Below, in pieces: positions 33,059 to 51,529 of a DNA stretch of 64,000 bases. Made by a program: the position numbers and the translations under genes. This stretch comes from an uncultured delta proteobacterium. GTDB taxonomy: Bacteria; Desulfobacterota; Desulfobacteria; Desulfobacterales; JAFDCJ01. The notes below the pieces were generated by a model. The model had not been told where the DNA came from. It did not search any database and saw only the letters and a list, made by a program, of their open reading frames with translations. Each line of letters begins with the position of its first letter. The stretch's first letter is position 1. Location: assembly GCA_963769935.1 (NCBI GenBank), contig CAVYNY010000020.1, positions 224,001-288,000 of the forward strand, given 5' to 3'.

Positions 33059-33108
33059 GGGGATGGAGTCCCCCTGTAACCGCCCGGCCCGGGCTGATGA
33101 CTCCTGCC
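33059..33108 (+). ncRNA. Fluoride riboswitch (crcB motif) #1
   Basis: GGGGATGGAGTCCCC-TGTAACCGC...GCTGATGACTCCTG; pseudoknot GGAG/CTCC; downstream GGCGGTT-T-tract complementary to AACCGCC. Confidence 0.9.
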
Positions 33109-33242
33109 GACAGCCATGTTCGGCGGGTTTTGATTAGTGGGAGGCCTGAAGGCGGTTTTTTTATTGCCACAGCGCGCCGACGGCCTCTCTGGGTGTGAGC
33201 ATTCCGGAAATGGATGCTCAGAATTCAACCGGGGAGACGGAA

Positions 33243-35048
33243 ATGACGCAGGCAGCACCCGCATCACTATATTGCAACGATCGCCCGCCTCTTGCGGCCT
33301 TGCTGGAAAAAGCGGCCGTCACGGTCGCGGAGATCGGACCGCAATTCATTCATTATGGCCGCAAGTTGACCGATTTGAACAGTCGCTTTTCCGAGGGCCG
33401 GTTTCACCTGGCGGTTCTCGGCCAGTTCAAGCGCGGCAAGAGCACTTTGCTGAACGCTCTGACGGGCCAGCCGATTCTGCCCGTGGGAGTCGTCCCCTTG
33501 ACCGCTGCACCGACCTTCCTTCAGTTCGGAGAGGCACCAAAAATCAGGGTAAGCTACCAGGATAACCGCCCCGCAGATGTATTCATCGGCGCCTCCACCG
33601 GCGAAAGATGCGCTTATTTGGCCGGCTTTGTCACTGAAAAGGGCAATCCCCAAAACAGGCGCGGCATTGCCGAGGTGCAAGTCGACCTGCCGGCGCCCCT
33701 TCTTTCCGGTGGCGTCGTATTGATCGACACGCCCGGCATCGGCTCCACCTACCGGCACAACACCACGGCTACCCTCGATTTCCTGCGGCAATGCGATGCG
33801 GCCCTTTTTCTGGTTTCGGCCGACCCGCCCATCACAGAAGTGGAGCTTGAGTTTTTACGGCAGGTGAGGGAAAAAGTGCCGCGGTTGTTCTTCGTATTGA
33901 ATAAAATCGATTACCTGGATAACGGCGAACTCGAAGAAGCGCTTTCCTTTTGCAAGAGCGTCCTGGCCCAGGAGGTTGGTTGGACCGGCGAATCTCCCGT
34001 TTTTTGCGTTTCGGCCCGCAAAGGCCTGGAAGCAAGAGCGGCCCAAGATCCCGGCGGATGGACCGCCAGCGGCATGGCGCAGTTGGAATCCTTCCTGGTG
34101 GATTTTCTTGCCAGAGAAAAGTTCAATGCCTTGATGGATGCCGTCTCCCGCCGGTCGCTGGATTTTATTGAGGCCATCCTGATGGAGGCCGGCATCGCTT
34201 TGCAGGCCCTGCAGCTGCCCCAACAAAAACTCGAAGAGAAAATCTCCATTTTTGAGGAAAGCCTGAAGCGGGCCGCGAGCGAGCGCGGGCTGATCCAGGA
34301 TGTTCTGGCAGGCGATAAAAAGCGGGTCGTGGCCTTTGTGGAGGAACAGGCCTGCGATTTGCGCGGGGAAGCCGAACAATTTTTGAAGAATACCATGCAT
34401 GGCGGCGCCGATTCAGGCAGCTGCGGCAAATCCACCAAAGCCGGTATCCAGCAGGCCTGGGCCGAAGCAATCCCCGACTTTTTCGAGCAGCAGCGGGCGG
34501 CGCTCAATGAACGCGTTCAGGCACGCCTATTGGAGTGCCTGGCACCGCATGAACAGCGCCTGACCCATCTCCTGGAAACACTGCGTCAGACTGCCGCCGA
34601 ACTGTTCCGGATACCTTACAGGCCCCTGACGCAGGAAGCGGCCCTGGAAATCAAAAAAAGGCCGTATTGGGTATTGAACACCTGGAACACCGATCCGCTG
34701 CCCATGCTTCAATCCATGGATCAACGTCTGGACGGACTGGTCCGGCGCAATGTCGAAAACATCCGCTGGTCCATGCTTCAGAACCTGAACATCTCCTTTG
34801 CCGGTTTTGCCCGCCGGACCCGGGAACGCCTGGATGAAACCGTTGCCGCCACCAAGGGGGCCATGGAGGCAGCCCATGCACGGCGACAGGCCCACGGCGG
34901 AAGCATTGAATCGGAAGCGGCTCGCATGGGCGACCGCATCGCGGTTTTGGAAGGGTTGAAAACCCAATTTGCCGTCTTGCGATCCGGCTTGCTTCAGGCT
35001 GCCGAGCCTAAATCGCAGGATGGTTTACCATCGGAGACCGGCGCATGA
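33243..35048 (+). CDS. Bacterial dynamin-like GTPase (alternative starts 33195/33210)
   Basis: G1 GQFKRGKST, G2 PLT, G3 DTPG, G4 NKID, VSAR; long helical C-terminus. Confidence 0.9.
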   Translation: MTQAAPASLYCNDRPPLAALLEKAAVTVAEIGPQFIHYGRKLTDLNSRFSEGRFHLAVLGQFKRGKSTLLNALTGQPILPVGVVPLTAAPTFLQFGEAPKIRVSYQDNRPADVFIGASTGERCAYLAGFVTEKGNPQNRRGIAEVQVDLPAPLLSGGVVLIDTPGIGSTYRHNTTATLDFLRQCDAALFLVSADPPITEVELEFLRQVREKVPRLFFVLNKIDYLDNGELEEALSFCKSVLAQEVGWTGESPVFCVSARKGLEARAAQDPGGWTASGMAQLESFLVDFLAREKFNALMDAVSRRSLDFIEAILMEAGIALQALQLPQQKLEEKISIFEESLKRAASERGLIQDVLAGDKKRVVAFVEEQACDLRGEAEQFLKNTMHGGADSGSCGKSTKAGIQQAWAEAIPDFFEQQRAALNERVQARLLECLAPHEQRLTHLLETLRQTAAELFRIPYRPLTQEAALEIKKRPYWVLNTWNTDPLPMLQSMDQRLDGLVRRNVENIRWSMLQNLNISFAGFARRTRERLDETVAATKGAMEAAHARRQAHGGSIESEAARMGDRIAVLEGLKTQFAVLRSGLLQAAEPKSQDGLPSETGA

Positions 35049-35145
35049 GCTGTGGTTGCTGAAAATAGTTCTATTGCGATCTGGAAAATGAAATCCGAAG
35101 CAAAAATAGAACGAATGCAATTGAGCCGACTGCGAAAATTTTGTC

Positions 35146-35175: not shown

Positions 35176-35207
35176 AAAAACACTAGATAAGCAAAAACTG
35201 CCGAGAA

Positions 35208-35257
35208 GGGGGATGGAGTCCCCCTGATAACCGCCTTGATGGCTGATGACTCCTACC
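35208..35257 (+). ncRNA. Fluoride riboswitch #2
   Basis: GGGGGATGGAGTCCCCCTGATAACCGCCTTGATGGCTGATGACTCCTACC. Confidence 0.93.
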
Positions 35258-35331
35258 ATGGCCGAGAATTCCTGGTGGGAGTTTATATATGAAAAGCTCC
35301 TGCCGGGTACGAGACCTGGAGGAGTTTTTTT
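35249..35331 (+). terminator. Riboswitch expression platform: two tandem hairpins
   Basis: actcctacca/tggtgggagt overlapping the aptamer 3' end; aagctcctgccgggt-acgag-acctggaggagtttttt. Confidence 0.7.
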
Positions 35332-35545: not shown

Positions 35546-36496
35546 ATGCTTCAAAAGTTCATTTTCAATATCATTCAGGTTTTGGTCGTGCTGGCCTTTT
35601 CGCCCCTCGTCAAGGGGGTTATGGATCGCCTCAAGGAGCGGGTCCAGTCGAAGAGAGGTCCGAGTATCTTTCAGCCCTACCGGGACATCTGGAAACTCTT
35701 CCACAAAGATGAAGTGGTGTCGGAGCACAGCTCCTGGATTTTCCGGTTGACGCCCTATGTGTGCTTCACAACACCCATGTTTGTCGCCCTTCTTATCCCC
35801 GTACTGACGGATTATCCGCTCTTTTTTGCTTTTATGGCGGATATGTTGGGCGGCGGCTTCGTGCTGGCACTGGGCGGGTTTTTTGCAACTCTGGCCGCCG
35901 TGGATACCGGAAACCCGTATGGACCGATGGGAGCCAGCCGCACGCGGATGGTCGGTTTTCTGGCCGAACCCGTCTTCATGGTGGTATTCTTCACCCTCTC
36001 CTTTGTAGCCGGTTCCACCATTCCCTATATCGTTCAGAAAGTCTGGGTGACATCGATTGCGAATTTCTTCGATCCATCACATGTCCTCGTGATGCTCGCC
36101 TTCCTGATGCTCATTATCGCTGAAAACGGACGCATTCCGGTGGACAACCCTTCCGGTCATTTTGAGCTGGCCATGATTGATGAATCCAAAGGGCTGGAAT
36201 ATTCGGGCCGCGGCGCGGCGCTTATGAAGTGGGGCGGCGCGATGAAATTCTTCGTACTGCTGTGCATCTTTCTCAATGTGATCGTGACACCGTGGGGCCT
36301 GGCGCGCAGCGATGCCGTCTGGCAGATTTTGATGGCCATTCCGCTCATTTTGCTGAAAATGTTCGCCCTGGTCGTGGTTTTGGTGGTGATCGAGTCATCG
36401 CTTGCCAAGCTGAGGCTGTTTCGCATCACGGAGTTTCTGGGTGCGGCCTTCGTCACTTCGGTGGCGGCAGTGATTATCCAACTTCTGGAGATATAG
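35546..36496 (+). CDS. hyfC: Hydrogenase-4 / Ehr membrane subunit, NuoH-like
   Basis: GPSIFQPYRD..KL..K, GASR, AEP, GRIPVD, LEYSG; AAGGAG RBS. Confidence 0.9.
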   Translation: MLQKFIFNIIQVLVVLAFSPLVKGVMDRLKERVQSKRGPSIFQPYRDIWKLFHKDEVVSEHSSWIFRLTPYVCFTTPMFVALLIPVLTDYPLFFAFMADMLGGGFVLALGGFFATLAAVDTGNPYGPMGASRTRMVGFLAEPVFMVVFFTLSFVAGSTIPYIVQKVWVTSIANFFDPSHVLVMLAFLMLIIAENGRIPVDNPSGHFELAMIDESKGLEYSGRGAALMKWGGAMKFFVLLCIFLNVIVTPWGLARSDAVWQILMAIPLILLKMFALVVVLVVIESSLAKLRLFRITEFLGAAFVTSVAAVIIQLLEI

Positions 36497-36505
36497 AGGT
36501 AAGAC

Positions 36506-37159
36506 ATGATTCAATTGAACGCTCTCGCGGGGGGACTCTTTCTGCTCACCATATTCGGGGTCATCGCCGTACGTCAAATCATCGGCGGTCTGAGGCTGTT
36601 TTTCATCCAGTCGATCCTGCTGGCCGGTTCGGCCTGTATCCTGGGCTATGAATTCGCCTCGATCCATTTGCTGGCGGTTGCCGGCATCACCCTGGCAGTC
36701 AAGTCCATCCTGATTCCCTGGCTCCTGCTGCGCACCCTCAGCCATGAGGTCCATGCCCGCCGGGAGATCACACAGGTCTTGAACATCCCCACCTCGCTGC
36801 TGGTTGCGGCGGCGATCACCATTTTGGCCTATTTTATTGTCCAGCCCCTGCTGGCCGTATCGTCTACGGCCTTTACCCGGATCAACCTGCCCATCGGTAC
36901 GGCCGGCCTTCTGCTGGGAGCCTACGCTGTGACAGTCAGGCGCGAGGCCTTGCCGCAGGTTCTGGGGATTCTGACCATGGAAAACGGGGCGTTTCTGGCA
37001 GGCGTTTCAATTGCCCCGAACTTGCCTTTCATCGCCGAACTGGCGGCTGCCTTTGACGTGCTGATCATCGCGATGGTGATGGGGCTTCTCGCCAGGCGGA
37101 TCCACAAACAGGTGGGTACCACGCTGGTGGGGGAAATGGCGACATTGAAGGAGGAATAA
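36506..37159 (+). CDS. hyfE: Hydrogenase-4 membrane subunit E-like
   Basis: hydrophobic; K.ILIP, QVLGILTMENG, ELAAAFDV. Confidence 0.85.
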   Translation: MIQLNALAGGLFLLTIFGVIAVRQIIGGLRLFFIQSILLAGSACILGYEFASIHLLAVAGITLAVKSILIPWLLLRTLSHEVHARREITQVLNIPTSLLVAAAITILAYFIVQPLLAVSSTAFTRINLPIGTAGLLLGAYAVTVRREALPQVLGILTMENGAFLAGVSIAPNLPFIAELAAAFDVLIIAMVMGLLARRIHKQVGTTLVGEMATLKEE

Positions 37160-37165
37160 AGTCTC

Positions 37166-38614
37166 ATGGAGCTTTGGTACATCCTGGCGATTCCCATGCT
37201 TGGCGCTGGCCTGGCGATGGTCCCGACGAGTAAACCCGGACTTGCGGCCGGGGCTACCGTGCTGGGGACCCTGGCAGTCTTTATTTTGTCCTGGCAAGCG
37301 GCCTGGGGCCTGGGGCACGGCATACCGGTGCCGGGCCCGGCAGAGTGGCTTGCCTGTGATGGGTTGAGCGCTCTTATTCTGATGCTGGTCTCCTTCGTGG
37401 GATGTGCGGCCGCCATATTCTCCTGGGGATATATCGGCCTGCCTGCTGATGACAAAGACCGGCAGCGCGCCCGGCGGTACTATAGGCGCTTTAACCTCTT
37501 CCTGCTTTCCATGCTGGCCGTCCCGCTGCTGTCTCAGATTGCGATGGTGTGGATCGCCGTGGAACTGACGACACTGCTTTCCGTATTCCTGGTGAGTTTT
37601 GAAAATACCGCTCAGGCCATGGAGGCCGCCTGGAAGTATGTGATTCTGACCTGCATGGGAGCGGCCCTGGCACTGATCGGGGTTTTGATTCTTTACTGGG
37701 GCCAGAGTCTTGCAGGCGGGGGGACGTTCACCTGGACGGGGTTGGCTGCCGCCTCACCCGGGATTCCGCCGATATTTCTCAAGACCGCCTTCCTCTTTAT
37801 CCTGGTAGGATTCGGGACCAAGGCGGGGCTGGTGCCTCTGCATACCTGGCTGCCCGATGCGCACAGCCAGGCCCCTTCACCGGTCTGCGCGCTGCTTTCG
37901 GGTGTCGAAACCACGACGGCCCTGTACGTCATCCTCAGACTTTTACCGGTCTTAAGCAATGTCTCCGGCAGCATCGGTTCGACCTGGTTGACGGTTTTCG
38001 GTTTGCTGTCCATGGGTGCAGCGGCCTTCCTGCTGATTCAGGTCCGGGATTACAAGCGGCTTTTTGCCTTTTCCACCATCGAGCATATGGGCATCATCCT
38101 GGTCGCGGCCGGAATCGGAGGAGAGGCCGCCCACCTGGCTGCCGCCGCCCAGATCATGACCCACGCCGTTACGAAGTCTTTCTGCTTTTATGCGGCCGGC
38201 GCCGTGCTGATGATGACCGGCACGCGCGAGATCGCTTCCGTGCGCGGACTGGTGCGGACTTCCCCGATTGTGGCGATTTGCCTGATGATCGGGGCCTTGG
38301 CCATCGCGGGCGCCCCGCCGTTCGCCGTGTTTTTGAGCGAGTTCGGCATATTCAGCGCCGGGCTTGCCGGAGGCCGTTATATCGTGACGGGTTTGTTCAC
38401 GCTCTTCATCACAGTAGCCTTCGGCGGCATCATGTACCAGGTCAACGCCATGGTGTTCGGCCGGGGTCCGGCCGGCGCCGCCCGAACCCGCCTGCCGCTG
38501 AGCTGCGGGGTTACCCTGGCACTGACCGTGCTGCCGGTGATTCTGCTCGGTTTGCATATTCCCGAACCGCTGCAAAACCTTTTGCGGTCTGCAGCGGCCG
38601 GCTTTGGGAGGTAA
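37166..38614 (+). CDS. hyfF: Antiporter-like proton-translocating subunit F
   Basis: WIAVELTT, EAAWKY, GFGTKAGLVPLHTWLPDAHSQAP, KRLFAFSTIEHMG. Confidence 0.9.
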   Translation: MELWYILAIPMLGAGLAMVPTSKPGLAAGATVLGTLAVFILSWQAAWGLGHGIPVPGPAEWLACDGLSALILMLVSFVGCAAAIFSWGYIGLPADDKDRQRARRYYRRFNLFLLSMLAVPLLSQIAMVWIAVELTTLLSVFLVSFENTAQAMEAAWKYVILTCMGAALALIGVLILYWGQSLAGGGTFTWTGLAAASPGIPPIFLKTAFLFILVGFGTKAGLVPLHTWLPDAHSQAPSPVCALLSGVETTTALYVILRLLPVLSNVSGSIGSTWLTVFGLLSMGAAAFLLIQVRDYKRLFAFSTIEHMGIILVAAGIGGEAAHLAAAAQIMTHAVTKSFCFYAAGAVLMMTGTREIASVRGLVRTSPIVAICLMIGALAIAGAPPFAVFLSEFGIFSAGLAGGRYIVTGLFTLFITVAFGGIMYQVNAMVFGRGPAGAARTRLPLSCGVTLALTVLPVILLGLHIPEPLQNLLRSAAAGFGR

Positions 38615-38621
38615 GACGAAA

Positions 38622-40229
38622 ATGGCCCTTCCCCTGGACAACATCGTGCAATGGACGAATCTGGCTGAAGCGCAACATCTCACGCTGGCCGGGCCGGGTC
38701 GAAGCGAGTCTTGATGAAGACAGGCTTATCGCTCATATCAAATGCGATCCCGGCGACCTGCAGGCGCTCTGCGGCTGGCTTGTTTCCGAATTGGGTTACA
38801 GCTTGGCCGCGCTGGTCGTCGAGGAAGAAGCGTCCGCATGGATGCTGCGCTACTTCTTTTACGGAGATCTGGGAAGCGGGCAGGTGCATGTTGTCGTCTG
38901 CTACCCCCTGTCCCAGACCACGATTCCCAGTATCAGCCGGCCGGTCCACGCCGCCGACTGGCAGGAGCGGGAGATTGAAGATCTCTTCGGGCTTCGGTTC
39001 GAAGGCCATCCCCGGCTGGGAGACTTTGTCCTGCACGAGGAATGGCCCGAGGGCGTCAACCCCATGCGGACATCTTTTGATGCCGCCGGAGCCTATCCTC
39101 ACAGGCAGCCGGATCCTGAATGGAGCCCGCTTGCCATCGTGGAAGCCCCCGGGGCCTTCATGATGCCGGTGGGGCCGGTCTATTCCGACCATGCCGAATC
39201 CGCCCTTTTTCTGCTCGAAACGGTCGGAGAGGATGTCCTGCGAACCATTCCGCGTTTTTTTTACAAGTATCGTGGGTTGGAAAAAATCGCGGAGGGAAAA
39301 TCCGTCGATCAGGTCCTTTTGCCGGTCGAAAGATTTTCAGGAACCTCCGCATTCGCGCACTCACTGGCCTTTTGCCGGGCCGTGGAAGAAATTTGCGGGG
39401 TGCGGGTTCCGGACAGAGCCCAGGCCCTGCGGGTGCTTCTGGCAGAGCTGGAGCGGCTGCGTCATCATGTGGCCGTGATTGCCGGTATCTGCCAGTCGAC
39501 GGCCCTTGCCGTGGCGACGAGCCAGGCAAGCATCCTGGAAGAAGAGATTCTGCGGCTTTGCTGTACCCTGGCGGGGCACCGCTATCTTTTCGGAATCAAC
39601 GTGCCGGGAGGCCTTGTCCTGGATCTGAGCAATGCTGAGTGCGACAAACTCGCTCAAGCAGCCTGGGGTGTTCTGGAACGACTGAAAAATCTGCAGGACA
39701 TGCTGCGCTTTTCAAGCTCCTTCCTGGATCGTCTGGAGGAAGTAGGGATCGTCTCCAGGGAAAAGTCCGTCTCTTACGGATTGGTGGGTCCTGTGGCCAG
39801 GGCGTCGGGCGTCTCCCGCGATCTGCGGGCGGCGCTGCCCTACGGCTATTACGACAGCGCCCTTAAGTTCCGGATCCCGCGCGAACAGGAAGGCGACGGT
39901 TATGCCCGCCTGCGGATTTTTTTCGGCGAAGCGGAACAATCGGTGAACATCATCAGCCAGGTGGCCGCTGCCCTTCCGCAAGGCCGGTCCGGTGTGAGCC
40001 GTTTGATCCGGCTCCGGGGGCCGCCCTCGGCTGGGTCGAAGCGCCTGCCGGCGCGGCATTTCACTGGGTGCGCATCGGGGTCAACGGCAAGCTTGCCCGC
40101 TGCCGCGTCATGACGCCGTCCTTCGTCAACTGGCATGGATTTCATCTTGCCGCAGAGGACTTCGCCTTCCAGGATTTTCCGATCATCATGGCGACCTTCG
40201 GGCTCTCCAATGCAGAATGCGACCGTTAG
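38622..40229 (+). CDS. hyfG: NuoC/D-like fused large subunit lacking NiFe-binding cysteines (Ehr type); frameshifts near both ends
   Basis: EREIEDLFG, GHP, GPV, YRGLEK, ERFSGTSAFAH (no CxxC), ELERL, GPVARASG; shifted C-terminus GWVEAP...PSFVNW...DFPIIMATFGLSNAECDR stop 40229. Confidence 0.85.
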
Positions 40230-40241: not shown

Positions 40242-41003
40242 ATGACAAAATGGGTATGGCAAGGGCTTCGGACAGGCATCAAGACCACCGAATACCCTCA
40301 TTCTCCGGAAACCGCAGCGGGGGTTTCTCCGGGAAGGCCTGTTGATCAAGAGCCTGTCCTGCAGAAGGAAATCCGGCCTGTGATGGATTTATGTCCCACC
40401 AACGCCCTGCTCCGATCGGCGGACAGGATCAGCGTGGACTACCGGCGCTGTATTCACTGCTTCCGGTGCAAACGCTTGCCCGCTGAACCTTTGAGCTGGG
40501 AACCCGGCTATGAGTGGGGGGAGTTTGTGTCCGATCAGGGGCCACTTGACCAGACCTTTGCGGCTTCCCTTCACATCCGCATCGTAGATGCGGGCGCCTG
40601 CGGGGCTTGTTTGAGCGAGATCAGGCAGATCACCAGCCCCTACTACAATATCCACCGCCTCGGTTTCTTTATCACACCTACTCCCAGAGCCGCGGATGTT
40701 TTGCTGGTGGCAGGGCCGGGAACCGACCACATGCGGGTATCGCTGCAAAAAGTCTTTGAGGCCATGCCCGCCCCAAAGCGGGTGATTGCCGTGGGGACCT
40801 GTGCGCTGACCGGCGGCGTTTTCGGGCCGAGCTTCGCCACGCAGGCCGGGGTGGGCGAAATGATTCCGGTGGATGTGGAGGTGCCGGGCTGTCCGCCGCC
40901 GCCCCTGGCAATCATCCACGCGGCGCTGGTTGCAGTCGGCCGAAAAAAAACGTCGAACGTGCCATCGCCTCCGGAAGCAGAGAAAAACAAGGAGCGGCTA
41001 TAA
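40242..41003 (+). CDS. hyfI: Ferredoxin + NuoB-like small subunit fusion
   Basis: CPTNA, CIHCFRC; DAGACGAC, TPRAAD, GTCA, VPGCPP. Confidence 0.88.
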   Translation: MTKWVWQGLRTGIKTTEYPHSPETAAGVSPGRPVDQEPVLQKEIRPVMDLCPTNALLRSADRISVDYRRCIHCFRCKRLPAEPLSWEPGYEWGEFVSDQGPLDQTFAASLHIRIVDAGACGACLSEIRQITSPYYNIHRLGFFITPTPRAADVLLVAGPGTDHMRVSLQKVFEAMPAPKRVIAVGTCALTGGVFGPSFATQAGVGEMIPVDVEVPGCPPPPLAIIHAALVAVGRKKTSNVPSPPEAEKNKERL

Positions 41004-43141
41004 TGGAAACCGGCAGTCTCTTCCTGATCTTTTTCCTGATTTGCGTCCTCGGGGTACTCCTCGCAGCCTTTTTGCCCGATCGCAAAAATCCAGCCGGTGC
41101 TCGCATGGGTCGCCTCCCTGGCCGCAATCGTCCTCCTGTGGGCCGGCGGCAGGGCGCTCTTTTACGATCAGACCATCATCTGCCCCCTGTGGCAGGTGAC
41201 GGCTGATATCAAACTTTCCCTGGAAGTGGACCGGCTTTCCGCCTTTTTTCTCTTTGTCACCGGACTGGTCTTTTTACCGGTCTCGATCTTTTCGGCGGAA
41301 TATTTGAATCGATACGCCGATTCATACAGCCTCAAATCCTTCGCGATTTTTTATCATCTGCTTTTTGCCGCCATTGTTTTGACCCTGATGGCCGGCGATG
41401 TATTCCTGTTTCTGATAGCATGGGAGGCCATGTCGATCCTGTCCTATCTCCTGGTCAGCTATGAGCACGAGCATGAGGAAAATACCCGTTCAGGATTCCT
41501 GATGCTGGCCATGGGTGAGGCAGGCACTCTGGCGGCGCTGCTGGCCTTCCTGATCATGGCAACAGCCTCGGGAGGCATCGGCTTTGCATCGCTGCGCTCG
41601 GCCGGCCTCGGCCAGTTTGCCCGCTGGGCAGTGTTTTTGCTGTCCTTCTTCGGCTTTGGGGTCAAGGCCGGCCTCGTGCCGGTGAACAGTTGGCTTCCCC
41701 GGGCCTACAGTGCGGCCCCCGGGAATTTCTCCGCTTTGCTTTCGGGAGCACTGGTTAACCTGGGTCTATACGGCATCGTCAGGATCAATGCGGATCTGCT
41801 GCCGATTGGAGATATCGGGCAGGGATTGATCGTGCTGGGGATTGGAACCCTCTCCGCTTTGATCGGTATTCTTTATGCGACTCCGGAAAACGACATGAAG
41901 CGGATGCTGGCGCATAGCTCCATCGAAAATATCGGAATCATCACCGCAGGGCTCGGCGCCGGTTTTGTATTTCTCTCCTCCGGACATGCCGTCCTGGGCG
42001 GGATCGCCTTTATTGCGGCCTTTTACCATATGGCCAATCATTCCCTTTACAAGGCGCTTCTTTTTCTGGGCGCCGCCGCAGTGGAAAGCCGGATGGGCGG
42101 CCGGGACCTGGACCGAATGGGCGGGCTCATCCGGAACATGCCCTGGGCCGGCCTTTTTTTCCTGGTCGGCGCACTCTCCATCGCCGCCCTGCCGCCTTTT
42201 AACGGATTTGTGAGTGAGTGGCTCACGCTGCAGTCCCTGCTGCAGTGCTCGGTGCTTTCATCAAAGGCCGCCAAAATAGTCTTTGCCATCTGCGGTGCGG
42301 GGCTTGCTTTGACCGCCGCGCTGGCGGTGACTTGCTTTGTCAAGGCCTTTGCGATGGGTTTTTTGGGCATGGCGAGGTCGGCGGAGGCCCGGCAGGCATC
42401 GGATGCCCCGCGCTCCATGACCGTCCCGATGGGCATGCTGGCGCTCGCCTGTCTACTGCTGGGAATCCTGCCCACCTATGTCATCCCGCAGATAGACCAT
42501 GTGGTGAAGCCCTATGTGCACGAAAGTGCGGTCGACGCCCTGGTGCCTCCCTTTTTCACGGTCGGTGCGGGAAACGAACGCTTCCCCGAGGCCTTTGTTC
42601 AGGAGTTCCATAACCTTGGCGCGCAGATCGGAAGCAGTACGCTCCCGGGAAGAGGCCTGGTGATCATGCACCGGGGATCGACGCGCAACCCGGTGATCTT
42701 CGCCATGTCAACATCGTACATGGTCATCGTTCTGGTTTTGTTTTTGGGAGCTGCAATTGTCGTCGTACGCTTTGTCGACCCGCAAGCGGGCTATAGTCAG
42801 GCGGGCCGCATGGGACGGAGGGGTTCGCAGGCTCGTCCCCGCGATGACCTATACGGCCACAGGGTTTTCCAACCCCGTGCGGGTGATTTTTAAAACCATT
42901 TTTCGACCCGTGACGATCCAGGACAGCCGGGAGACCATCGCTGAGCACTTCCGCAACGCCATCAAAAAGGACACCCGGGAAGTCCATATTGCAGACCGAC
43001 TCCTGATAAGACCCGTTATACTCGGAGGCCGAAGTCTATGCCGTCCGATTGGCCCGGATGCACTCGGGACGGGTAAATGCTTATGCCGCCTATATCCTGA
43101 TCAGCCTATTGATTGTTTTGCTGATTATGCGAGCGGCGTAA
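41003..43141 (+). CDS. hyfB: Antiporter-like subunit B; frameshifts near 41097, 42780 and 43040
   Basis: AWEAMS, GFGVKAGL.P..WLP, KRMLAHSSIENIG, LPPFNGFVSEW, MTYTATGFS, final MHSGRVNAY...RAA stop 43141. Confidence 0.85.
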
Positions 43142-43255
43142 AGGCATCTGCGAAAGTCAGAATAGGCCATTGCATGACGGCCCTTACGGAAAAACACAAG
43201 CGCCCGGCGTGATGAAATTTTCCAAAGCGGGAGAGTTTCTGTAAAATCTGCCAGT

Positions 43256-43745
43256 CGCGCGTTCGCGCCCTGGTTGGAGAACACGAGATACTTGTCGGCA
43301 GCGACGGTTTGCTGCATCATCGGCAGGTTGCCCACGATGTCTGCTAACTCGAAGGAACGACAGCTCACATGGTCATCGATGAGGAGTATGCCGGCCATAT
43401 CCTCATCGGGGATTCGGTCAAGGCCGACACACGGCAAGCGGTTTCGCAATTGCGAAGCATCGGGATCGAGCGCGTTGAAATACCGGCGGCAACCGCTTTA
43501 CGGCTGAGGCAATTGCCAATAATCTATGCGTGGATGCGTTCCATGTAGAACTCTTTGCCGGAAGACAAGGTGCGCTTGCTGGAAGAAATCCAGGCGGCAA
43601 CCGATCATGGCGGCAAAATTGCCTTTGTCGACGACGGGATCAATGACACTCCGGTTATTGCCAGGGCCGATGTCGGGGCCGCCATGGGTGCCCTTGGCAT
43701 GGATGCAGCCATCGAGACTGCCGACGTAGTGCTCATGACCGATTC
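43256..43745 (+). pseudogene. Heavy-metal P1B-type ATPase (CadA/ZntA) C-terminal remnant
   Basis: YAGHILIGDSVK, LPEDKV, AFVDDGINDTPVIARADVG.AMG..G.DAAIETADVVLM; in-frame TAA and frameshift; GDG changed to DDG. Confidence 0.75.
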
Positions 43746-43821
43746 TGCGCTGAAAGCGGATGATCTTTTCTGTGTTAGATTACGAACCAGATCATCTCAC
43801 CTTTCTTTTTCGGACGATTCG

Positions 43822-44763
43822 CTACCGTGAAACATATTGCAGATGCAGTGCGAAATCGATTATGCATGTGATGAAAAAGGACACCGTAGGCGTTAGAAAC
43901 CAGCCCGTAAAGATGCTGTAAAGTGTCTTGCGATCGATGGTCTTGGCACCCTTGATGAATCCAACGCCTATAACAGCGCCGATCACGGCCTGCGTGGTGG
44001 ATACCGGTACGCCGATGATCGCATTGATATGAACGGTAACCGCTTCGCCCAAAACAACGATCAGGGCAGAAAAAGGATCCAGGCGCACAAGCTTTCGACC
44101 CACCGTCTCCATAACGCCTCGGCTGTAAGTCAGAACTCCAAATCCAATGCTTATGGCACCTATAAGTGCGGCATTGAATATAGTTAGGGTCCCGGCCGCA
44201 ACGAAGACGGCCGAGGTATTAGCGACATTGTTGGCGCCTAAAGAGTAGGAGGCATATGACCCTGCTATCACCAATGCGATCCGCACAAGTATATCGGCCT
44301 GAAAAATGTTTGTCCTCAGGCGATTGTAAACTAACGCTAAAACCTTGTACAGCATGATGGAGGCCAAGATCGCACAAAAGGGGGTCGCGAACCAGCAGAT
44401 GACTACTTTTTCCAAACCGGCCGAGTTGACCTGGTTGTTTAGAAATCCGATCCCCAAGATGGCCCCGACCACCCCCTGGGAAGTCGACACAGGCAGGCTG
44501 AGCAATGTCATGACGGTCACCGTCAAGGCGACTGCAACCGTTATTGCTACGGCTTGTTTCAAGTCGATTGATGTCAAACTGCTCAGGGTCTTGATGCCAG
44601 CCTGTCCTTCGAGCAGAGAGCCGATCAGTACAAAGATGGCGCATAGAATCGCTGCTGTCCGAAAGCGCACCATGCGCGAGGCCACCGCTGAACCGAAACA
44701 ATTAGCAGCGTGGTTGGCTCCTAGAGACCACCCCAGAAATACTCCGCCCAGAAGCGAATACAT
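43822..44763 (-). CDS. pit: Inorganic phosphate transporter (PiT family)
   Basis: GANHAAN and GANNVAN repeats, PVSTSQ / PVSTTQ. Confidence 0.9.
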   Translation of the reverse strand: MYSLLGGVFLGWSLGANHAANCFGSAVASRMVRFRTAAILCAIFVLIGSLLEGQAGIKTLSSLTSIDLKQAVAITVAVALTVTVMTLLSLPVSTSQGVVGAILGIGFLNNQVNSAGLEKVVICWFATPFCAILASIMLYKVLALVYNRLRTNIFQADILVRIALVIAGSYASYSLGANNVANTSAVFVAAGTLTIFNAALIGAISIGFGVLTYSRGVMETVGRKLVRLDPFSALIVVLGEAVTVHINAIIGVPVSTTQAVIGAVIGVGFIKGAKTIDRKTLYSIFTGWFLTPTVSFFITCIIDFALHLQYVSR

Positions 44764-44950
44764 TAAAGCCTCCTTTTCAATGTCAATAATTTCAGCCCAT
44801 TGGAGAGCCGATTTGCATGTTCCGAAATCTGCTCTATGGCCATAGCCAACTCCTTCAGCTGAAATCTTCTTAGAAAATTTTACTGATCTTGGCAGTCACT
44901 CTATTTGATAAAATGCCCGTTTCATATGCACTAAAACACTATCGAGTTCC
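44763..44950 (-). pseudogene. Possible DUF47 (Pit accessory) C-terminal remnant
   Basis: ...QLKELAMAIEQISEHANRLSNGLKLLTLKRRL stop overlapping the pit ATG (TAATG); upstream broken by stop/frameshift. Confidence 0.45.
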
Positions 44951-45169
44951 CAAGTTCCACGCAAAAGCCTATCTCAGATTCACGCCTACTCTACGCCGGA
45001 GGCCGTTTAGGCAGCAAACAGGTGCCCCCTAAACTGAGTTAAAATTATCAATATGCAAAAAATGAAGTCTAAAATTCTAATTTTTACAAATAAAATAATT
45101 TATTTTCTCGCGGATATATCTGCATCACTGAGATGACACAGTGGCCATAAAAAGATTTTTTCAGTTCGA

Positions 45170-46636
45170 TTATCGGGGTTGGACATGTTCAATGCGCTTG
45201 ATGCCTTCCCTATTCAATACCACCCGGTACCGCATGTATAAATCCTTTTCGGCAAGGGCCATCCGAACGACCATATTAAGGTGATAAACCCTTGCACCCC
45301 TGATACGATAGTATCCCTCGTCGTTCATTACGAAGAGCTCCTTCTTGGGATCATCCATCCGCCGTAGAAATTCTTGGACATTGAAACGCATAATATCATT
45401 GACACCGGATACCTCGTATTTCGAGAAAATGCGGCGCACTCTTTCCCGATGCAGTCGAATACGCTTGCGGTACAGCAGAATGTCCTCGCCAATCCATCCG
45501 TTTTCAATTTCTGTAATGTGGTCTCGATTTCGCAACTCCCGCACCTCCGCCGAAAGTTTGCGTTCTTTGACAAACCCGAAGCTTTCCCTGCAAACCCCGA
45601 CGATTCCGCCGGCAACATCGCGTACACGAACCTTATGATCAAAAAGAAAGCGCATCATCTTGCGGGACAGGTGATACTTTAGAAGATCCTTGATTCGGTC
45701 CTTAAAGATATAGCTGATGACAAGCGTCACAAAAACCGGCATGGTCAGGCTGCCATAGACAGTTTGGGAAATGAATGCGGCGGCCGTTGCAAATACCATA
45801 GCGGCAGCGGCGGCCAAACCAAAAAAGACTTGCTGCAGAAAAAGCCAGTCCGTTTTTACTTCTGCATCAAGAAACAGAATACTGGCGACATATTTTTTTA
45901 ATACGCTCCTGCGAAACACCAAAGTTTCGTTATCCTTCTGCTCTTCCGGTATCGAAGCATAGCGTCTTTTCTTGCGATAGTTGACTTCACCTTCAATCAA
46001 CGCCAGCATCTTTTTACGGTTCTCCGGGCTCAGACCTGAATCGATGGCTGAGATAGCATCCAGCAAGTGGTAGGTGTAGTCTTCCACAGTCAGACTGATG
46101 TACTCGTCACCAAAAAGGTAGATTTCAAAGGTACGCTGATCAACACTTGGGATCTGGATAATCTGTTGGAGTTCATGGTATCCGGCGGTTATGTCTTGAA
46201 TCGCAGTCAGATACTCGCGAGTAAGGCGTTCCCTATCCTGCGCATCAACGGTCCTGAGAATATAAGCCACATAGTCGCGGACCGCACTCTTGAGGATACA
46301 GCAGAACATCTTGATTTGCCCTTCAAACGCCCGTAGAGGAATCTTCGAGGATTGCTGGGCTATCTGTTCCAAATCACTGCGAAGTTGCGCCAATGGACTC
46401 TGAGCGCCTGCCTTAAAGCGGTTCAGCGGCACCGACGGTGTCCTTATGCGGATGTAGGACTGTAAATCGGTATAGAACTGCTGTTTGCTATATGTCTGAG
46501 GATGTACGCCCAGGCTGCGAGGGGCGAAAAAATACAAATCCACCTCATATGAATTCCGCCGATGGTTGTCAAGAAGGGGATAATTTAGCTTCAGCTCCAT
46601 TTGATGCAGATCGTGGATGCTGATCCTAGCTTCCAT
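45170..46636 (-). CDS. Hypothetical protein with two adjacent TM helices
   Basis: 488-aa ORF; hydrophobic hairpin around residues 270-310; AAGGA RBS. Confidence 0.8.
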   Translation of the reverse strand: MEARISIHDLHQMELKLNYPLLDNHRRNSYEVDLYFFAPRSLGVHPQTYSKQQFYTDLQSYIRIRTPSVPLNRFKAGAQSPLAQLRSDLEQIAQQSSKIPLRAFEGQIKMFCCILKSAVRDYVAYILRTVDAQDRERLTREYLTAIQDITAGYHELQQIIQIPSVDQRTFEIYLFGDEYISLTVEDYTYHLLDAISAIDSGLSPENRKKMLALIEGEVNYRKKRRYASIPEEQKDNETLVFRRSVLKKYVASILFLDAEVKTDWLFLQQVFFGLAAAAAMVFATAAAFISQTVYGSLTMPVFVTLVISYIFKDRIKDLLKYHLSRKMMRFLFDHKVRVRDVAGGIVGVCRESFGFVKERKLSAEVRELRNRDHITEIENGWIGEDILLYRKRIRLHRERVRRIFSKYEVSGVNDIMRFNVQEFLRRMDDPKKELFVMNDEGYYRIRGARVYHLNMVVRMALAEKDLYMRYRVVLNREGIKRIEHVQPR

Positions 46637-46862
46637 AGGAGTCCTTTTGTCGCTGGTTACCCATTAATACAGATTTAATTTCAAAGAGTTAGATAACAGC
46701 ACCATGGTTTTGGGTGTCAAGCCGATTTGTATAGGGTGAATAAGGCAAGGAATATGTTCCAGTTCGATGAAATGAGCCCTCCGATACATTGAAAATTTTT
46801 GCTTGACTTTGCCTCGATAAGAACTATAGTCAAATTAATATAATTCGCTCGAAAAAAAAACG

Positions 46863-46912
46863 GGGGGATGGAGTCCCCCTGATAACCGCCTTGACGGCTG
46901 ATGACTCCTACC
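46863..46912 (+). ncRNA. Fluoride riboswitch #3
   Basis: GGGGGATGGAGTCCCCCTGATAACCGCCTTGACGGCTGATGACTCCTACC, one substitution relative to #2. Confidence 0.93.
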
Positions 46913-46985
46913 ATGGCCCAAAATTCCTGGTAGGAGTTTCTGTCTGAAGTACTCCTGCCGGGTACGAGACCTGGGGGAGTTTTTT
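46904..46985 (+). terminator. Riboswitch expression platform: two tandem hairpins
   Basis: actcctacca/tggtaggagt-ttc; actcctgccgggt-acgag-acctgggggagtttttt. Confidence 0.7.
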
Positions 46986-47251
46986 CATGCGCAGCAAATT
47001 CCGCCTGTTGAAATCGCAGCAAGTCCCGAATCTCTTTCTGAACACTCGCCGGATAGATCGATGCCCGTCCTCCAGCAGGTCTCCCATTAAAAATTCAACT
47101 AGTCCGCAGAGGCTGTTTAATCCTGATGCCCGCGGAGAATTTGCAATCTTGCACTGCCATTAGGAGGATTTCCTCATTGGCACATTTGGCAAGAGATAGG
47201 GCATACTAGAGAAATAAGTTCGATCCAGCCAAAATAAAGAGAGGTGCCGTC

Positions 47252-47671
47252 ATGACGGCCCTTGCAGAAAATCACAAGCGCGCCTTGCTGAGCAGGCTGC
47301 GGCGAATCGACGACCTGCTGAGGGAAATCGAATACCGTGCGCGGCCGGACGGCATCGAGTCGGCTTTCGAGGACGAAATCTCAGATTGGACATGCGCAAA
47401 GCGCCGGATCGTATTCGATTGGATCGCTGAAGTTCGGCAACTGTTGAAATCCATCATCGAACGCCAGGGCCTTGTGGCTGCGCAATCCACCGCCAGTGCA
47501 GCCTGGCTCGTTCAAACCAGCGTGGATCTCATGCTCAGTGTTGTCGACGAGTTGCAACCGGAGCGTATGCACGGCTACGGCGAGCTTTCCGTAGCGGCTG
47601 GCCGCGAATTGGATGAAATCGTTTCAGATCTGCGGCGGCAGTTTTTGAAATTGACTGAAACATTTTGTTAA
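47252..47671 (+). CDS. Small helical hypothetical protein
   Basis: 139 aa, GAGGT RBS; ENHKR.L...ID.LL and DELQPERMHGYGEL motifs. Confidence 0.8.
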   Translation: MTALAENHKRALLSRLRRIDDLLREIEYRARPDGIESAFEDEISDWTCAKRRIVFDWIAEVRQLLKSIIERQGLVAAQSTASAAWLVQTSVDLMLSVVDELQPERMHGYGELSVAAGRELDEIVSDLRRQFLKLTETFC

Positions 47672-47832
47672 AGTCCAAGCATTAAGTTGCAGTTTTTTAA
47701 AAAGTGGGCTTTAGAGGTAACTTTCTTATGCGCTCATTTGCCGAACAAAGACTTGACTCGCAAATACATCTGCCTGCAGGCCGGGAGCCGGATGTCGCGC
47801 TTCCGCGTCATGGGCCGGAGGGTATTCGTGCA

Positions 47833-49368
47833 ATGACCTTCTGCAGCATATTAGTTGAAAACCCGCAAGACAGCCTCAAAAAAGAAACTCCGCAAGTGCC
47901 CGAATTTTTTAGCGACTTAAATCTTGATCAGATTATAGACGCCGTCACGGCCGGCCGGCAGGACTATAATCTGAAACCGTTTTTTTACACTTCCTTAAAT
48001 GACGTCGATACCATCAAGTACCGCCAGGAAGTCGCGCAGGATCTCGAAAGCGAAACGTTGCTGGCAAGCATAAAATCTTTCGCCCAAGAGATGATCGTCA
48101 TGCGCCGCTATCTATCCATGATAGAAAAGCTTCACTATAAATACCATAAAGAGGGCTGGTTTTTGGAAGCGGTCATAGTTTATTGTGATGCCGTCAACCG
48201 TCTGGCGCATGATTTATCTCAGGCAAAATTAAAATCGCGTGGGCTTTCGGCTTTCCGTGATTATATATCGAACTATGCCGAATCCGATGGTTTCTCATCG
48301 CTTCTGGCCGAAACGAAAAAGCTTAAAGTCGGCTTGTCCACTGTGAAATATTGCGTGCTTATAGACGGAGGGCATGTCAAGGTCCGTAAATATGAAGCTG
48401 AAATCGATTACAGTACAGATGTGGAGCAAACATTCGAAAGGTTCAAACAGGGCGCGGTAAAAGATTACAAGACAGAGCTGGCCATCGGTGCGGGCATGAA
48501 TCATGTCGAAGCCAATATACTGGATTTTGTAGCCAAATTGTATCCCGACCTATTTTCAAGGCTTGATGATTATTGCACCAAAAACGCTGATTATCAGAAT
48601 GAAACGTTAGCTGCTTTTGACCGTGAAATCCAATTTTACGTAGCCTATCTAGAGTATGTCGCAAAAACCAAACGCGCGGGATTGAAATTTTGTTACCCGC
48701 AAATCGTCGACCGGAGCAAGGAAGTCTATGATCACGAAGGGTTTGATTTAGCGCTGGCCCATAAACTCATTGCCGGAAACTCGCCTGTTGTCTGCAATGA
48801 TTTTTACCTGAAGGGCAAGGAGCGCATCCTTGTCGTCAGCGGTCCGAACCAGGGCGGCAAAACCACCTTTGCCCGCACCTTCGGGCAGCTGCATTACCTG
48901 GCCGGCCTGGGATGCCCCGTGCCGGGCCGGGAGGCGCAGCTTTTTCTCTGCGACAGACTCTTTACGCATTTCGAAAAGGAAGAAAACATCCAAAATCTGC
49001 GCGGCAAACTGCAGGACGACCTGGTCCGGATTCACCATATTCTCGACCGGGCCACGCCCAACAGCATCGTCATCATGAATGAAATCTTCACTTCCACTGC
49101 CCTAAAAGACGGGATTTTTTTAAGCCAAAAGGTGATGGAAAAAATAATCCGATTGGATTTGCTGTGCGTCTGGGTGACATTTATAGATGAGATGGCCTCT
49201 ATCAGCGAAAAAACCGTGAGTATGGTCAGCACTATCGTGCCTGAAAATCCGGCCTTGCGGACCTTTAAAATTGTGAGAAGGCCGGCCGACGGACTCGCCT
49301 ATGCAACGGCCATTGCCGAAAAGTATCGTCTGACGTACAGGCAGCTAAGGGAGCGCCTAAACTCATGA
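47833..49368 (+). CDS. MutS-related ATPase (domain V only) #1
   Basis: VCND, SGPNQGGKTT, RLFTHF, GKL, IMNEIFTST, VTF; GGAGG RBS. Confidence 0.88.
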   Translation: MTFCSILVENPQDSLKKETPQVPEFFSDLNLDQIIDAVTAGRQDYNLKPFFYTSLNDVDTIKYRQEVAQDLESETLLASIKSFAQEMIVMRRYLSMIEKLHYKYHKEGWFLEAVIVYCDAVNRLAHDLSQAKLKSRGLSAFRDYISNYAESDGFSSLLAETKKLKVGLSTVKYCVLIDGGHVKVRKYEAEIDYSTDVEQTFERFKQGAVKDYKTELAIGAGMNHVEANILDFVAKLYPDLFSRLDDYCTKNADYQNETLAAFDREIQFYVAYLEYVAKTKRAGLKFCYPQIVDRSKEVYDHEGFDLALAHKLIAGNSPVVCNDFYLKGKERILVVSGPNQGGKTTFARTFGQLHYLAGLGCPVPGREAQLFLCDRLFTHFEKEENIQNLRGKLQDDLVRIHHILDRATPNSIVIMNEIFTSTALKDGIFLSQKVMEKIIRLDLLCVWVTFIDEMASISEKTVSMVSTIVPENPALRTFKIVRRPADGLAYATAIAEKYRLTYRQLRERLNS

Positions 49369-50873
49369 AGGCTTTCCTCATGCATAAGGATCAGGACTTT
49401 GACCTAAAGCGGAAGTTGCCGACAAATGAACAAGCACTGACCCAGGACCTGGAATTAAACACGCTGTTCAACGCCATGGCGCTCGGTGACGAATTTCTAT
49501 TTGATGCGGCCAAGAAGGCCGTTTTTTGGGGTTTGAACAACGATCTGGCAACAATCCGGTACCGTCAAAGCATTCTAACAGACTGCCTGAAAAATTCCTC
49601 CATTGTCAGGGAAATTTACGACATCGCGGTGGAATCCATTGAAAACAAGAAAAGGCATCATATCGGCATCTTCGGCCGTTGGCCCGGTTCAATCCTGCAT
49701 GGCGCAATTGATATGATGGAAATGTTTGTCGACCAGCTTAAAAAGTTAAAAAATATCTCCGATAAAAATGTCGCTAAATTCGGGTCGGAGGGATTTGCCA
49801 GGTTTTTTAGAATGATTCATACGGAGCTGGAAGATGAATATCTCGTCGGCATCCAAAATCATCTCAGAGAACTGAAATTCCGCCACGGCGTGTTGCTCAG
49901 CGCCGAATTGGGAAAAGGCAATGAAGGTGCCGATTATATACTTCGCAAGCCGCACGCTGAAAATCGGAGTTGGATGCAGCGCATCTTTGCCAAAAAGCCG
50001 CCGGTCTATACCTTTTCCATCCATCCTCGCGATGAAGCCGGCGGCAGGTTTCTGTCGGATTTAAAAGACAGGGGCATCAATCTTGTTGCCAATGCCCTTG
50101 CGCAGTCCGCTGATCATATTGAGAGCTTCTTTAAAATGCTGCGAATTGAATTGGCTTTTTACATCGGCTGCTTGAATTTATATGAACAACTTGCCCATAT
50201 GGGGGAACCGGTATCCTTTCCCCTACCCGCGGCCTCCAGCGAACGCAAACATTCTTTCCGGGGATTGTACGATGTCTGTCTGGCCTTAACCATGCAGCAA
50301 AAAATCGTCGGCAACGACGTGAACGCCGACAACAAAGAACTCGTGATCATCACAGGCGCGAACCAGGGCGGCAAATCAACCTTTCTGCGAAGTATCGGTT
50401 TGGCTCAATTGATGATGCAATGCGGCCTGTTTGTACCGGCAGAGTCTTTCTGTGCTAATGTCTGCGACGGCCTTCTCACGCACTACAAACGGGAGGAGGA
50501 CGCTGCCATGGAAAGCGGCAAGCTCGATGAAGAACTCAGCCGGATGAGCGACATCGTAAATAGTATAACGCCTAATTCCATGGTGTTGTTTAATGAGTCG
50601 TTTGCCGCAACCAACGAAAGGGAGGGCTCGGAGATCGCAAGGCAGATAGTCTGTGCGTTGTTGGAAAAGAGGGTCAAAGAGTTCTTCGTTACGCATTTAT
50701 ACGAATTTCCGCAGAGTATTTACGACACAAAAACGGAAAGCGCCATTTTCCTGCGGGCCGACAGACAAATCGACGGAAAGCGAACGTTTAAGTTGGTCGA
50801 AGGAGAACCGCTGCAAACCAGCTTCGGCGCAGATTTGTATAAGAGTGTATTCGGAACGGATAAATTGACATGA
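49365..50873 (+). CDS. MutS-related ATPase (domain V only) #2
   Basis: VGND, TGANQGGKSTFLRS, SGKLDEEL, LFNESFAATN, FVTH; ATGA overlap. Confidence 0.88.
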   Translation: MKAFLMHKDQDFDLKRKLPTNEQALTQDLELNTLFNAMALGDEFLFDAAKKAVFWGLNNDLATIRYRQSILTDCLKNSSIVREIYDIAVESIENKKRHHIGIFGRWPGSILHGAIDMMEMFVDQLKKLKNISDKNVAKFGSEGFARFFRMIHTELEDEYLVGIQNHLRELKFRHGVLLSAELGKGNEGADYILRKPHAENRSWMQRIFAKKPPVYTFSIHPRDEAGGRFLSDLKDRGINLVANALAQSADHIESFFKMLRIELAFYIGCLNLYEQLAHMGEPVSFPLPAASSERKHSFRGLYDVCLALTMQQKIVGNDVNADNKELVIITGANQGGKSTFLRSIGLAQLMMQCGLFVPAESFCANVCDGLLTHYKREEDAAMESGKLDEELSRMSDIVNSITPNSMVLFNESFAATNEREGSEIARQIVCALLEKRVKEFFVTHLYEFPQSIYDTKTESAIFLRADRQIDGKRTFKLVEGEPLQTSFGADLYKSVFGTDKLT

Positions 50874-51529
50874 ATTTTGCCGGCAGGAAACGAGAGATAG
50901 CAGCAGTCATAAAATCTCTGAGGCAAAACCGCAACGTCGTTCTGACCGGCCGATACGGAGTGGGCCGCACAAGCCTGGTTAAACACATTGCCAGGCTTCA
51001 CTCGGCAACCTGGCAATTTCTGTTTGCCGATTTTTCCAAGACGGTTGCCCGATCCTGCAACGAGATGATCGGCCAATTGGCATCCGGAGGGAGCAAGGCG
51101 CAACAACATCAATATACGCGGCTGATGTATGCAAAGGAAATTCTTATGGAGAGAAAGGCGGCCGCGGATCTGCCGCGAGTGATCGTTTTGGACAATATCG
51201 GCAAACTCTCCCATTCCAAACTTGCTTTCCTCCGCGACATGCGGCTCGACAGCGACCTTCTTTTTATCGCCGTCGCCGAAAGTTTCCTGCCGGAGGCCGA
51301 TCTGTTCCGGTTGAGAGCGACTCTGTACCCTTCGGATGTGCTGGCACTTCACAACCTTAAACGTAAGGAGACAGTCGCCTTCTTCAGAACTTTTTCTCAG
51401 AGAAAGCGACTGGGATGGAGTGAAAGTTTCATTAAGATGCTGGCGGCCTCGACAGAAGGCTACGCGCTGCTGATGAAGGAAAGAGCCCAACGAGAGGCGG
51501 GCCTTACCGCGAATGGTAAGAACCTTTAA
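50870..51529 (+). CDS. P-loop/AAA-like protein with atypical Walker A
   Basis: FAGRKRE, LTGRYGVGRT, VIVLDN; ATGA overlap. Confidence 0.75.
   Translation: MNFAGRKREIAAVIKSLRQNRNVVLTGRYGVGRTSLVKHIARLHSATWQFLFADFSKTVARSCNEMIGQLASGGSKAQQHQYTRLMYAKEILMERKAAADLPRVIVLDNIGKLSHSKLAFLRDMRLDSDLLFIAVAESFLPEADLFRLRATLYPSDVLALHNLKRKETVAFFRTFSQRKRLGWSESFIKMLAASTEGYALLMKERAQREAGLTANGKNL

Follow-up and report, generated by a model that had tools for sequence, protein, structure and literature searches.

Genes annotated as mutS and 'formate hydrogen lyase' were named downstream of the crcB motif in 2010 (Weinberg 2010; PMC2864571). Fluoride is tied to acidification and to loss of the proton-motive force, and antiporters are the second most common cargo of the fluoride riboswitch (PMC11139923; these two sources, and PMC6349859 below, are cited for their searchable passages). 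The FRM operon of Enterobacter cloacae (ppaC-uspA-eno-gpmA-crcB-orf5249; PMC5533749) is a riboswitch-induced island whose non-exporter genes have been tested and add resistance, and FRM genes flank MutS4 pairs elsewhere, for example on a plasmid of Citrobacter amalonaticus Y19. Ehr (energy-converting hydrogenase-related) complexes (PMC6349859) join hydrogenase-like subunits of Group 4 that lack Ni/Fe ligands to Mrp-like subunits, and MutS4A/B (Lin, Nei and Ma 2007; PMC2190696) are an adjacent, overlapping pair with a MutSac domain, found in scattered phyla. Traits of these systems come together in a 64,000-nucleotide (nt) stretch, hereafter the window, of an uncultured delta proteobacterium (assembly GCA_963769935.1, contig CAVYNY010000020.1, positions 224,001 to 288,000). 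It has the aptamer and ON logic of the fluoride riboswitch regulon, a complex of Ehr composition, a gene pair of MutS4 type and a dynamin whose G domain is homologous to those of the bacterial dynamin-like proteins BDLP (2j68), DLP1/2 (5owv) and IniA (6j72).

Three fluoride riboswitches in the window head three plus-strand units, which encode a dynamin-like GTPase, a hyfC-E-F-G-I-B-like complex, and a helical protein followed by two MutS-like ATPases and a P-loop protein; the gene calls of the first-pass annotation hold for all three. We put a probability of roughly 0.5 on these units being a fluoride-switched damage-control kit, one that preserves the energy supply and integrity of the cell and does not export fluoride via a known channel. 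The features concerned are, with lengths in amino acids (aa) and transmembrane helices abbreviated TM:

33050..33113, + strand: fluoride riboswitch 1 (RF01734, 56.7 bits)
to ~33131, + strand: hairpin pairing with the 3' end of the riboswitch 1 aptamer, and a short U run (predicted fold)
33243..35048, + strand: dynamin-like GTPase, ~601 aa, alternative GTG start at 33195 (PF00350, 96 bits)
35200..35262, + strand: fluoride riboswitch 2 (RF01734)
35200..35330, + strand: whole leader of riboswitch 2, a predicted sequester/antiterminator/terminator relay with a U7 run at its end
35546..36496, + strand: hyfC/NuoH-like membrane subunit (PF00146)
36506..37159, + strand: hyfE-like membrane subunit (PRK11492 below cut-off, PF00420 weak)
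37166..38614, + strand: hyfF-like Mrp-type subunit (E133, K219, H333, K337 and E392 kept; TM8 E248-T249)
38622..40229, + strand: hyfG-like large subunit, Ni-binding CxxC absent (frameshifts near 38672 and 39984 in this assembly)
40242..41003, + strand: hyfI/NuoB-like small subunit (PF01058)
41003..43141, + strand: hyfB-like Mrp-type subunit (frameshifts near 41094, 42770 and 43039 in this assembly)
46755..47120, + strand: leader 3, a near-duplicate of the hyfC leader (sequence comparison, fold, RF01734)
46803, + strand: promoter-like TTGACT-16-TATAGT in leader 3 (sequence)
46855..46917, + strand: fluoride riboswitch 3, with relay and terminator to ~46982 (RF01734, predicted fold)
47252..47671, + strand: 139-aa four-helix protein (predicted structure, profile search)
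47833..49368, + strand: MutS4A, 511 aa (PF00488; Walker A GPNQGGKTT, Walker B IVIMNE)
49365..50873, + strand: MutS4B, 502 aa (PF00488; Walker B VLFNE)
50870..51529, + strand: degenerate P-loop (AAA_16-like) protein (Walker A GRYGVGRT, Walker B IVLDN)

The claim of three crcB-class aptamers was borne out by the Rfam model RF01734, which matches the window at exactly three places, each time on the plus strand and over its full length (model positions 1-64), at 56.7-56.9 bits (E ~4e-13) against a gathering cut-off of 34 bits. The same three and no others were found among the 150 of 1096 candidates scored in the source genome (8.0 Mb, 96.7% complete), and a whole-genome regular-expression search returned them together with one stray match without P1. 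The competing terminator-like hairpins that had been annotated are likewise present in the predicted folds, in which the 3' end of each aptamer is contested by a downstream hairpin. For leaders 2 and 3 the ligand-free prediction pairs the aptamer 3' strand downstream and forms a strong hairpin and its U6-7 run; without the aptamer strand, the best predicted fold as far as the U run is a 12-14 bp antiterminator. Past the U run it is still the best fold predicted for leader 3, and in leader 2 antiterminator and terminator come out about equal (-26.0 vs -26.4 kcal/mol). For leader 1 the prediction is less elaborate, an overlapping hairpin and a short run of U. Binding of fluoride would lock the 3' strand in the aptamer and free the antiterminator, so that transcription passes the U-tract terminators. 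Terminator-like hairpins occur in 32 of 38 hyfC-type leaders, hand-picked from related loci, vs 28 of 380 shuffles. Leaders 2 and 3 are nearly identical across ~360 nt, including the promoter-like site.

The first-pass annotation recognised no Fluc or CLC-F gene in the window, and a search of the whole 96.7%-complete genome found neither. The Fluc family PF02537 had no match there (the control matched in 11 of 14 genomes). Seven CLC matches were obtained, and the six open frames inspected have GxGxP/GHGTD, GREGP and GxFxP-type motifs and none of the CLC-F motifs, for which the signatures GNNLI/GMGLI and GREGT/V are given (PMC11139923). The seventh match, broken and N-terminal only, gave no recoverable frame in which to inspect the motifs. 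The best identity in the source genome to a riboswitch-headed CLC-F (L108, with GREGT and GEVTP, the latter of which we take to be a CLC-F motif) is 31%. Three ordinary PF00999 antiporters are encoded elsewhere in the genome. Such absence is ordinary in the phylum: among 300 evenly drawn genomes, 125 have crcB, 14 a CLC-F-like gene, 129 either and 171 neither, so that the missing exporters are weak support for a new pump; Ehr was found in 3 of these genomes and MutS4 in 9. An exclusion of exporters by the island genes was considered and set aside, the trends being weak (crcB in 1 of 9 MutS4 genomes, p=0.085, and in 9 of 34 with close dynamins, p=0.065); over all dynamin hits the count is 13 of 53 (p=0.006), and kin are not independent in any of these comparisons.

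The complex of the second unit has the Mrp antiporter-like and Fe-S parts of Ehr, with two PF00361 subunits, a PF00146 subunit and a PF01058 subunit in which four cluster cysteines are kept; this HyfI also has a ferredoxin-like CxxCxxC motif at its N-terminus. The large subunit reads ERFSGTSAFAH where HycE has DRVCGIC, and its C-terminus reads GLSNAECDR. Because the two Ni-binding CxxC motifs are absent from it and from the homologues inspected, we assign the complex to Ehr and not to formate hydrogenlyase. Its link to the riboswitch is recurrent. Of 80 metagenome loci chosen by the large subunit alone (the best 80 of 197, several of them near-duplicates), 61 have a hyfC hit and 52 of these have at least 450 nt upstream; a riboswitch on the same strand and at most 800 nt before hyfC was counted in 47 of the 52, using a model (R1) built from 19 hits, two of them below the Rfam cut-off. 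No riboswitch lies near three Ehr operons in which the genes are ordered differently (L133-L135). In a tree of 32 chosen rows the window's HyfF falls into a 25-row clade with support of 100/100 and a long stem; the large-subunit tree was made by a quick method and omits the window's broken hyfG. With helices numbered as we presume them to run in the Mrp-type subunits of Ehr, the clade retains the axis of TM5 Glu, TM7 Lys and TM12 Glu in both subunits.

In the dynamin the G1 (GQFKRGKST), G3 (DTPG) and G4 (NKID) motifs are all intact, and its likeness to BDLP, DLP1/2 and IniA (E ~1e-19) is confined to the G domain. The 300 phylum genomes yielded 53 matches at E<=1e-25; of the best 29 loci, 25 have a riboswitch just upstream on the same strand, one has a cut hit 1.5 kb away and three have none. 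By coordinates, at least six dynamin genes (G373, G249, G292, G366, G232, G389) lie within ~1.5 kb of crcB. The 139-aa protein, predicted as two helical hairpins (pLDDT 84), offers a link between units. Its profile, 3 of whose 14 rows themselves come from dynamin fusions, drew 1840 clusters; a dynamin G domain is joined to it in 66 of the best 150 and in 54 of the 54 over 600 aa, and many homologues have the helical domain N-terminal to the GTPase. We infer from these fusions that unit 3 is tied to unit 1. Foldseek gave nothing at E<=0.001 for the helical fold, VIA gave only generic helical hairpins (best Z 7.3) and the Atlas search only nameless clusters, under 0.9. A complex prediction for dynamin residues 1-585 with the 139-aa protein scored 0.00 twice while its controls did not fold, and is used neither way. 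A recurring cassette of an AAA and a DUF6062-like gene (L022, L023, L029, L048, L054, L067, L091) is in most cases accompanied by the helical protein and a 553-aa dynamin type (G1 GQFKAGKSS), and L047, L050 and L066 hold dynamin fusions of 870-890 aa.

The MutS-like pair fits MutS4A/B (PMC2190696) in adjacency, overlap (start and stop at 49365/49368) and MutSac domain, with PF00488 (MutS_V) above cut-off in both genes. The pair is 70% identical to one from a Thermoanaerobacter (L039). MutS_V was the only domain found; searches for the mismatch-binding MutS_I, Smr and other extra domains found none of them in either protein. Walker B ends in NE rather than the DE of MutS1, from which the pair also differs by the missing mismatch domain I, and NE recurs in 153 of 154 frames in which the motif was found (162 examined). 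It aligns with the structure of the E. coli MutS mutant D693N (3k0s), which reportedly hydrolyses ATP poorly. The signature is altered as well, with GKL in place of STF, yet the fold follows MutS over most of the chain (TM score 0.5-0.6 to MutS1, MutS2 and MSH). In the family of the AAA-like gene, Walker A reads GRT, GRS, GRR or GKT and Walker B reads DN. A KamC-type reactivase was considered for the MutS-like genes and rejected, the match being weaker than that to MutS and far below cut-off. MutS4 is widespread (candidates scored: 7999 of 7999). Eighty genome loci, the best 80 of 109, were examined; both genes are present in all of them, at least one riboswitch (E<0.01) in 62 and two or more in 42.

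Neighbours in these 80 loci, counted from crude clusters of open reading frames, include enolase (29), USP (29), dynamin (at least 26), MFS (25), DUF6062 (23), crcB (17), CPA2 (15), gpmA (9) and the Ehr large subunit (8), and in 10 a pyrophosphatase-like gene by our own assignment, Pfam giving no hit. This list of neighbours largely matches the FRM gene set. MutS4A was found on 45 plasmids; of the four opened, two carry annotated crcB and eno, one a MutS4-Ehr-CLC arrangement and one an MFS gene with an Ehr-like subunit. MutS4 and dynamin occur together in 6 of the 9 MutS4 genomes of the phylum sample (p=9e-5, kin not independent). The window thus holds one version of a fluoride island that is mobile and modular and related to the FRM operon, its genes likely being a little-studied, mix-and-match fluoride-tolerance kit. 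The first-pass annotation had proposed one multi-component fluoride-stress system distinct from the known channels. What stands is that all modules are tied to riboswitches across phyla, each separately (47/52, 25/29 and 62/80), that they co-occur, and that the helical domain fuses to dynamins; they are no fixed three-part set, however, as the 8 of 80 loci with Ehr show, and the claimed separation from known channels is not supported, with crcB inside 17 of the 80 loci and in 23 of the 50 such genomes tested (of 79, completeness unstated), none of which gave a CLC-F-like gene with the one query used. The MFS family of the 25 loci (L020-L099) is another candidate for a fluoride-related transporter not yet described. 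At L035, L042, L049, L052, L061, L070, L082 and L090, riboswitch islands encode long proteins whose N-terminus resembles a pyrophosphatase and for which Pfam gives no hit. A relative with a 100%-complete genome (G051, with L100 and L102) carries MutS4, dynamin, MFS and CPA2 along with five riboswitches; crcB, CLC-F and core Ehr were not found in it.

Between units 2 and 3 (43.2-46.6 kb) lie three genes that no riboswitch precedes:

43200-43830, + strand: heavy-metal P-type ATPase, present as a broken remnant directly after hyfB (sequence)
43822-46636, - strand: Pit/PHO4 transporter and 488-aa protein, the latter with hydrophobic sequence around residues 264-310 (sequence)

On a relative's contig the end of hyfB is joined directly to the helical gene. 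Together with the near-copy at leader 3, this suggests that a single operon can hold units 2 and 3, here apparently split by insertion of these three genes and by a duplicated leader. Pit genes of the window's kind occur in 5 of the 80 Ehr loci. The 488-aa gene matches only nameless clusters and gave no tblastn hit in related loci; it was left out of the proposed system, as was a TPR gene. G+C content is 47-49% at 44000-54000 vs 54-61% across the dynamin and Ehr part, which agrees with separate acquisition, and the scarcity of riboswitches among congeners (any hit in 2 of 22, at 70 candidates each) agrees with horizontal gain. No tRNA was found in the window.

As a damage-control kit, the island might work as follows. 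Entry of HF would acidify the cytoplasm, drain the proton-motive force and poison phosphoryl-transfer enzymes. Through its Fe-S and Mrp-type subunits Ehr would move H+ or Na+ without ATP, restoring proton-motive force and pH much as the Na+/H+ antiporters behind other fluoride riboswitches might. Repair or remodelling of the stressed membrane would fall to the dynamin, the helical protein serving as its split-off accessory domain, and MutS4A/B could be a slow-hydrolysing heterodimeric ATP clamp on a non-mismatch target. Several observations weigh against this scheme. No transmembrane helix is predicted in the dynamin, where the hydrophobic 19-mer maximum is not above 1.43. The Ehr large subunit has neither the Ni ligands nor the Tyr motif of NuoD, and the genes hyfG and hyfB carry two and three frameshifts in this assembly. 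MFS (18 of 80) and CPA genes occur within Ehr loci, so that Ehr is no simple substitute for either. Finally, TM8 of both Mrp-type subunits is changed: E248 and T249 of HyfF are kept in 97% and 96% of 69 sequences, and the TM8 Lys of HyfB is Asn (N221, numbered from 41097) in 57 of 57, vs Lys in 3 of 3 HyfB proteins without a riboswitch. These changes may point to a cargo other than H+.

That cargo might be fluoride itself, in which case the riboswitch-headed Ehr clade would use complex I parts for redox-driven pumping of F- or for F-/H+ exchange, in place of Fluc/CLC-F. We consider this unlikely, and give similarly low odds to its wider form, a third bacterial exporter class with rewired TM8 that works with the dynamin and a MutS4 clamp in many anaerobes without Fluc/CLC-F. 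Clade-specific TM8 changes in both subunits speak for export, as does the fact that Ehr is the sole membrane transporter under a riboswitch in the source genome, where island-type MFS, CPA1 and CPA2 genes and crcB were not found. More distant Ehr lineages (L136-L138) lack the TM8 changes and have riboswitches nearby, so the changes are not needed for fluoride control. Also in favour of export, crcB is absent from 7 of 8 island genomes with core Ehr vs 20 of 42 without, from all 3 Ehr genomes of the phylum sample and from all but 4 of the 80 Ehr loci. However, 3 of 3 is not significant where 171 of 300 genomes have neither exporter (p=0.27), and crcB is also missing from all 8 island genomes of delta- or Syntroph- title without core Ehr (L023, L029, L047, L048, L054, L066, L067, L097), so that the trend tracks taxonomy; moreover, Ehr adjoins crcB in L076, L144, L168, L195 and L197. 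To our knowledge, no Mrp or complex I subunit moves anions.

It is also improbable, in our view, that dynamin and MutS4 are the core and Ehr an accessory. Metal-fluoride complexes trap NTPases, and both proteins could bind MgFx or AlFx with NDP and serve as fluoride-activated effectors or sinks. Of the 300 phylum genomes, 34 have a close dynamin match and 3 have Ehr, a large difference, and the near-invariant NE of MutS4, shared with MutS D693N, has its counterpart in the degenerate AAA gene; one fluoride complex per 60-kDa chain would, however, make a poor sink for a permeant ion. A decaying Ehr copy in the source strain, with the island partly a dead passenger in which only dynamin and MutS4 work, seems quite unlikely. 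Five frameshifts in two genes, where 2 of 56 other genes tested are split, and the ATPase remnant inserted after hyfB would suit decay. Against it, near-identical contigs from four runs have compensating indels at the frameshift sites. Within the frameshifted block, 11 of 864 and 31 of 1978 positions differ between the window and run X1, most flanks having 0-2 differences per 1-2 kb, and the window's private substitutions are confined to ~38.3-43 kb, a pattern that fits a poorly polished assembly block. By our estimate, assembly error is the likelier cause. Least probable is that MutS4 and its partners answer fluoride-linked damage to DNA or translation (by repair, anti-recombination or ribosome rescue), for which the MutS fold and a DNA-damage idea in the searchable text of PMC2864571 can be cited, since MutS_I, Smr and extra domains were not found, mutL is absent among the common neighbours, and Walker B and signature are altered.

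Elsewhere in the window, two trimethylamine methyltransferase (MttB) genes flank an aromatic amino acid lyase (1208-8466, - strand), an aldehyde ferredoxin oxidoreductase is split over two frames (3061-4945, - strand), a histidine utilisation cluster (24106-29870, + strand) has a four-helix '23S rRNA IVP' gene inserted at 27428-27805, and acetoacetate-CoA ligase is left as an internally deleted fragment (54078-54740, + strand).

For three families, namely one Ehr clade, MutS4 and a dynamin family with its helical partner, the locus supplies a named inducer and a simple assay. Over half of the sampled phylum genomes are without a recognisable exporter, vs >85% having one among cultured reference genomes, and fluoride tolerance limits microbial defluorination work (both PMC11139923). 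A literature search that reached few subscription papers found no paper linking the fluoride riboswitch to dynamin and none devoted to its link with Ehr or MutS. The gene lists that Baker et al. are said to have compiled in 2012 could name the riboswitch-headed GTPases.

Compared with the fluoride riboswitch regulon as described in the searchable passages of PMC2864571 and PMC11139923, the formate-hydrogenlyase-like and MutS-like genes that the first-pass annotation had named are both listed (PMC2864571), but in the window 'formate hydrogen lyase' is a Ni-free Ehr and mutS a MutS4 pair; those passages and supplements do not mention dynamin, and no exporter was found in the source genome. Unlike in the FRM operon, none of the six FRM genes stands behind the window's switches, and 'mutS' occurs 0 times in the main text of PMC5533749. 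From the Ehr complexes in the searchable parts of PMC6349859 the window's differs in its order C-E-F-G-I-B, its own clade (100/100), its TM8 substitutions, its fluoride riboswitch and the lack of an fdhA or nuoEF partner beside it. Relative to BDLP, DLP1/2 and IniA, the window dynamin is without a predicted transmembrane segment, under fluoride-riboswitch control and accompanied by a putative split helical accessory domain. MutS4A/B, finally, were described from five bacteria, without a function being given (PMC2190696), whereas here the pair is widespread, linked to the fluoride riboswitch and marked by a conserved Walker-B NE.

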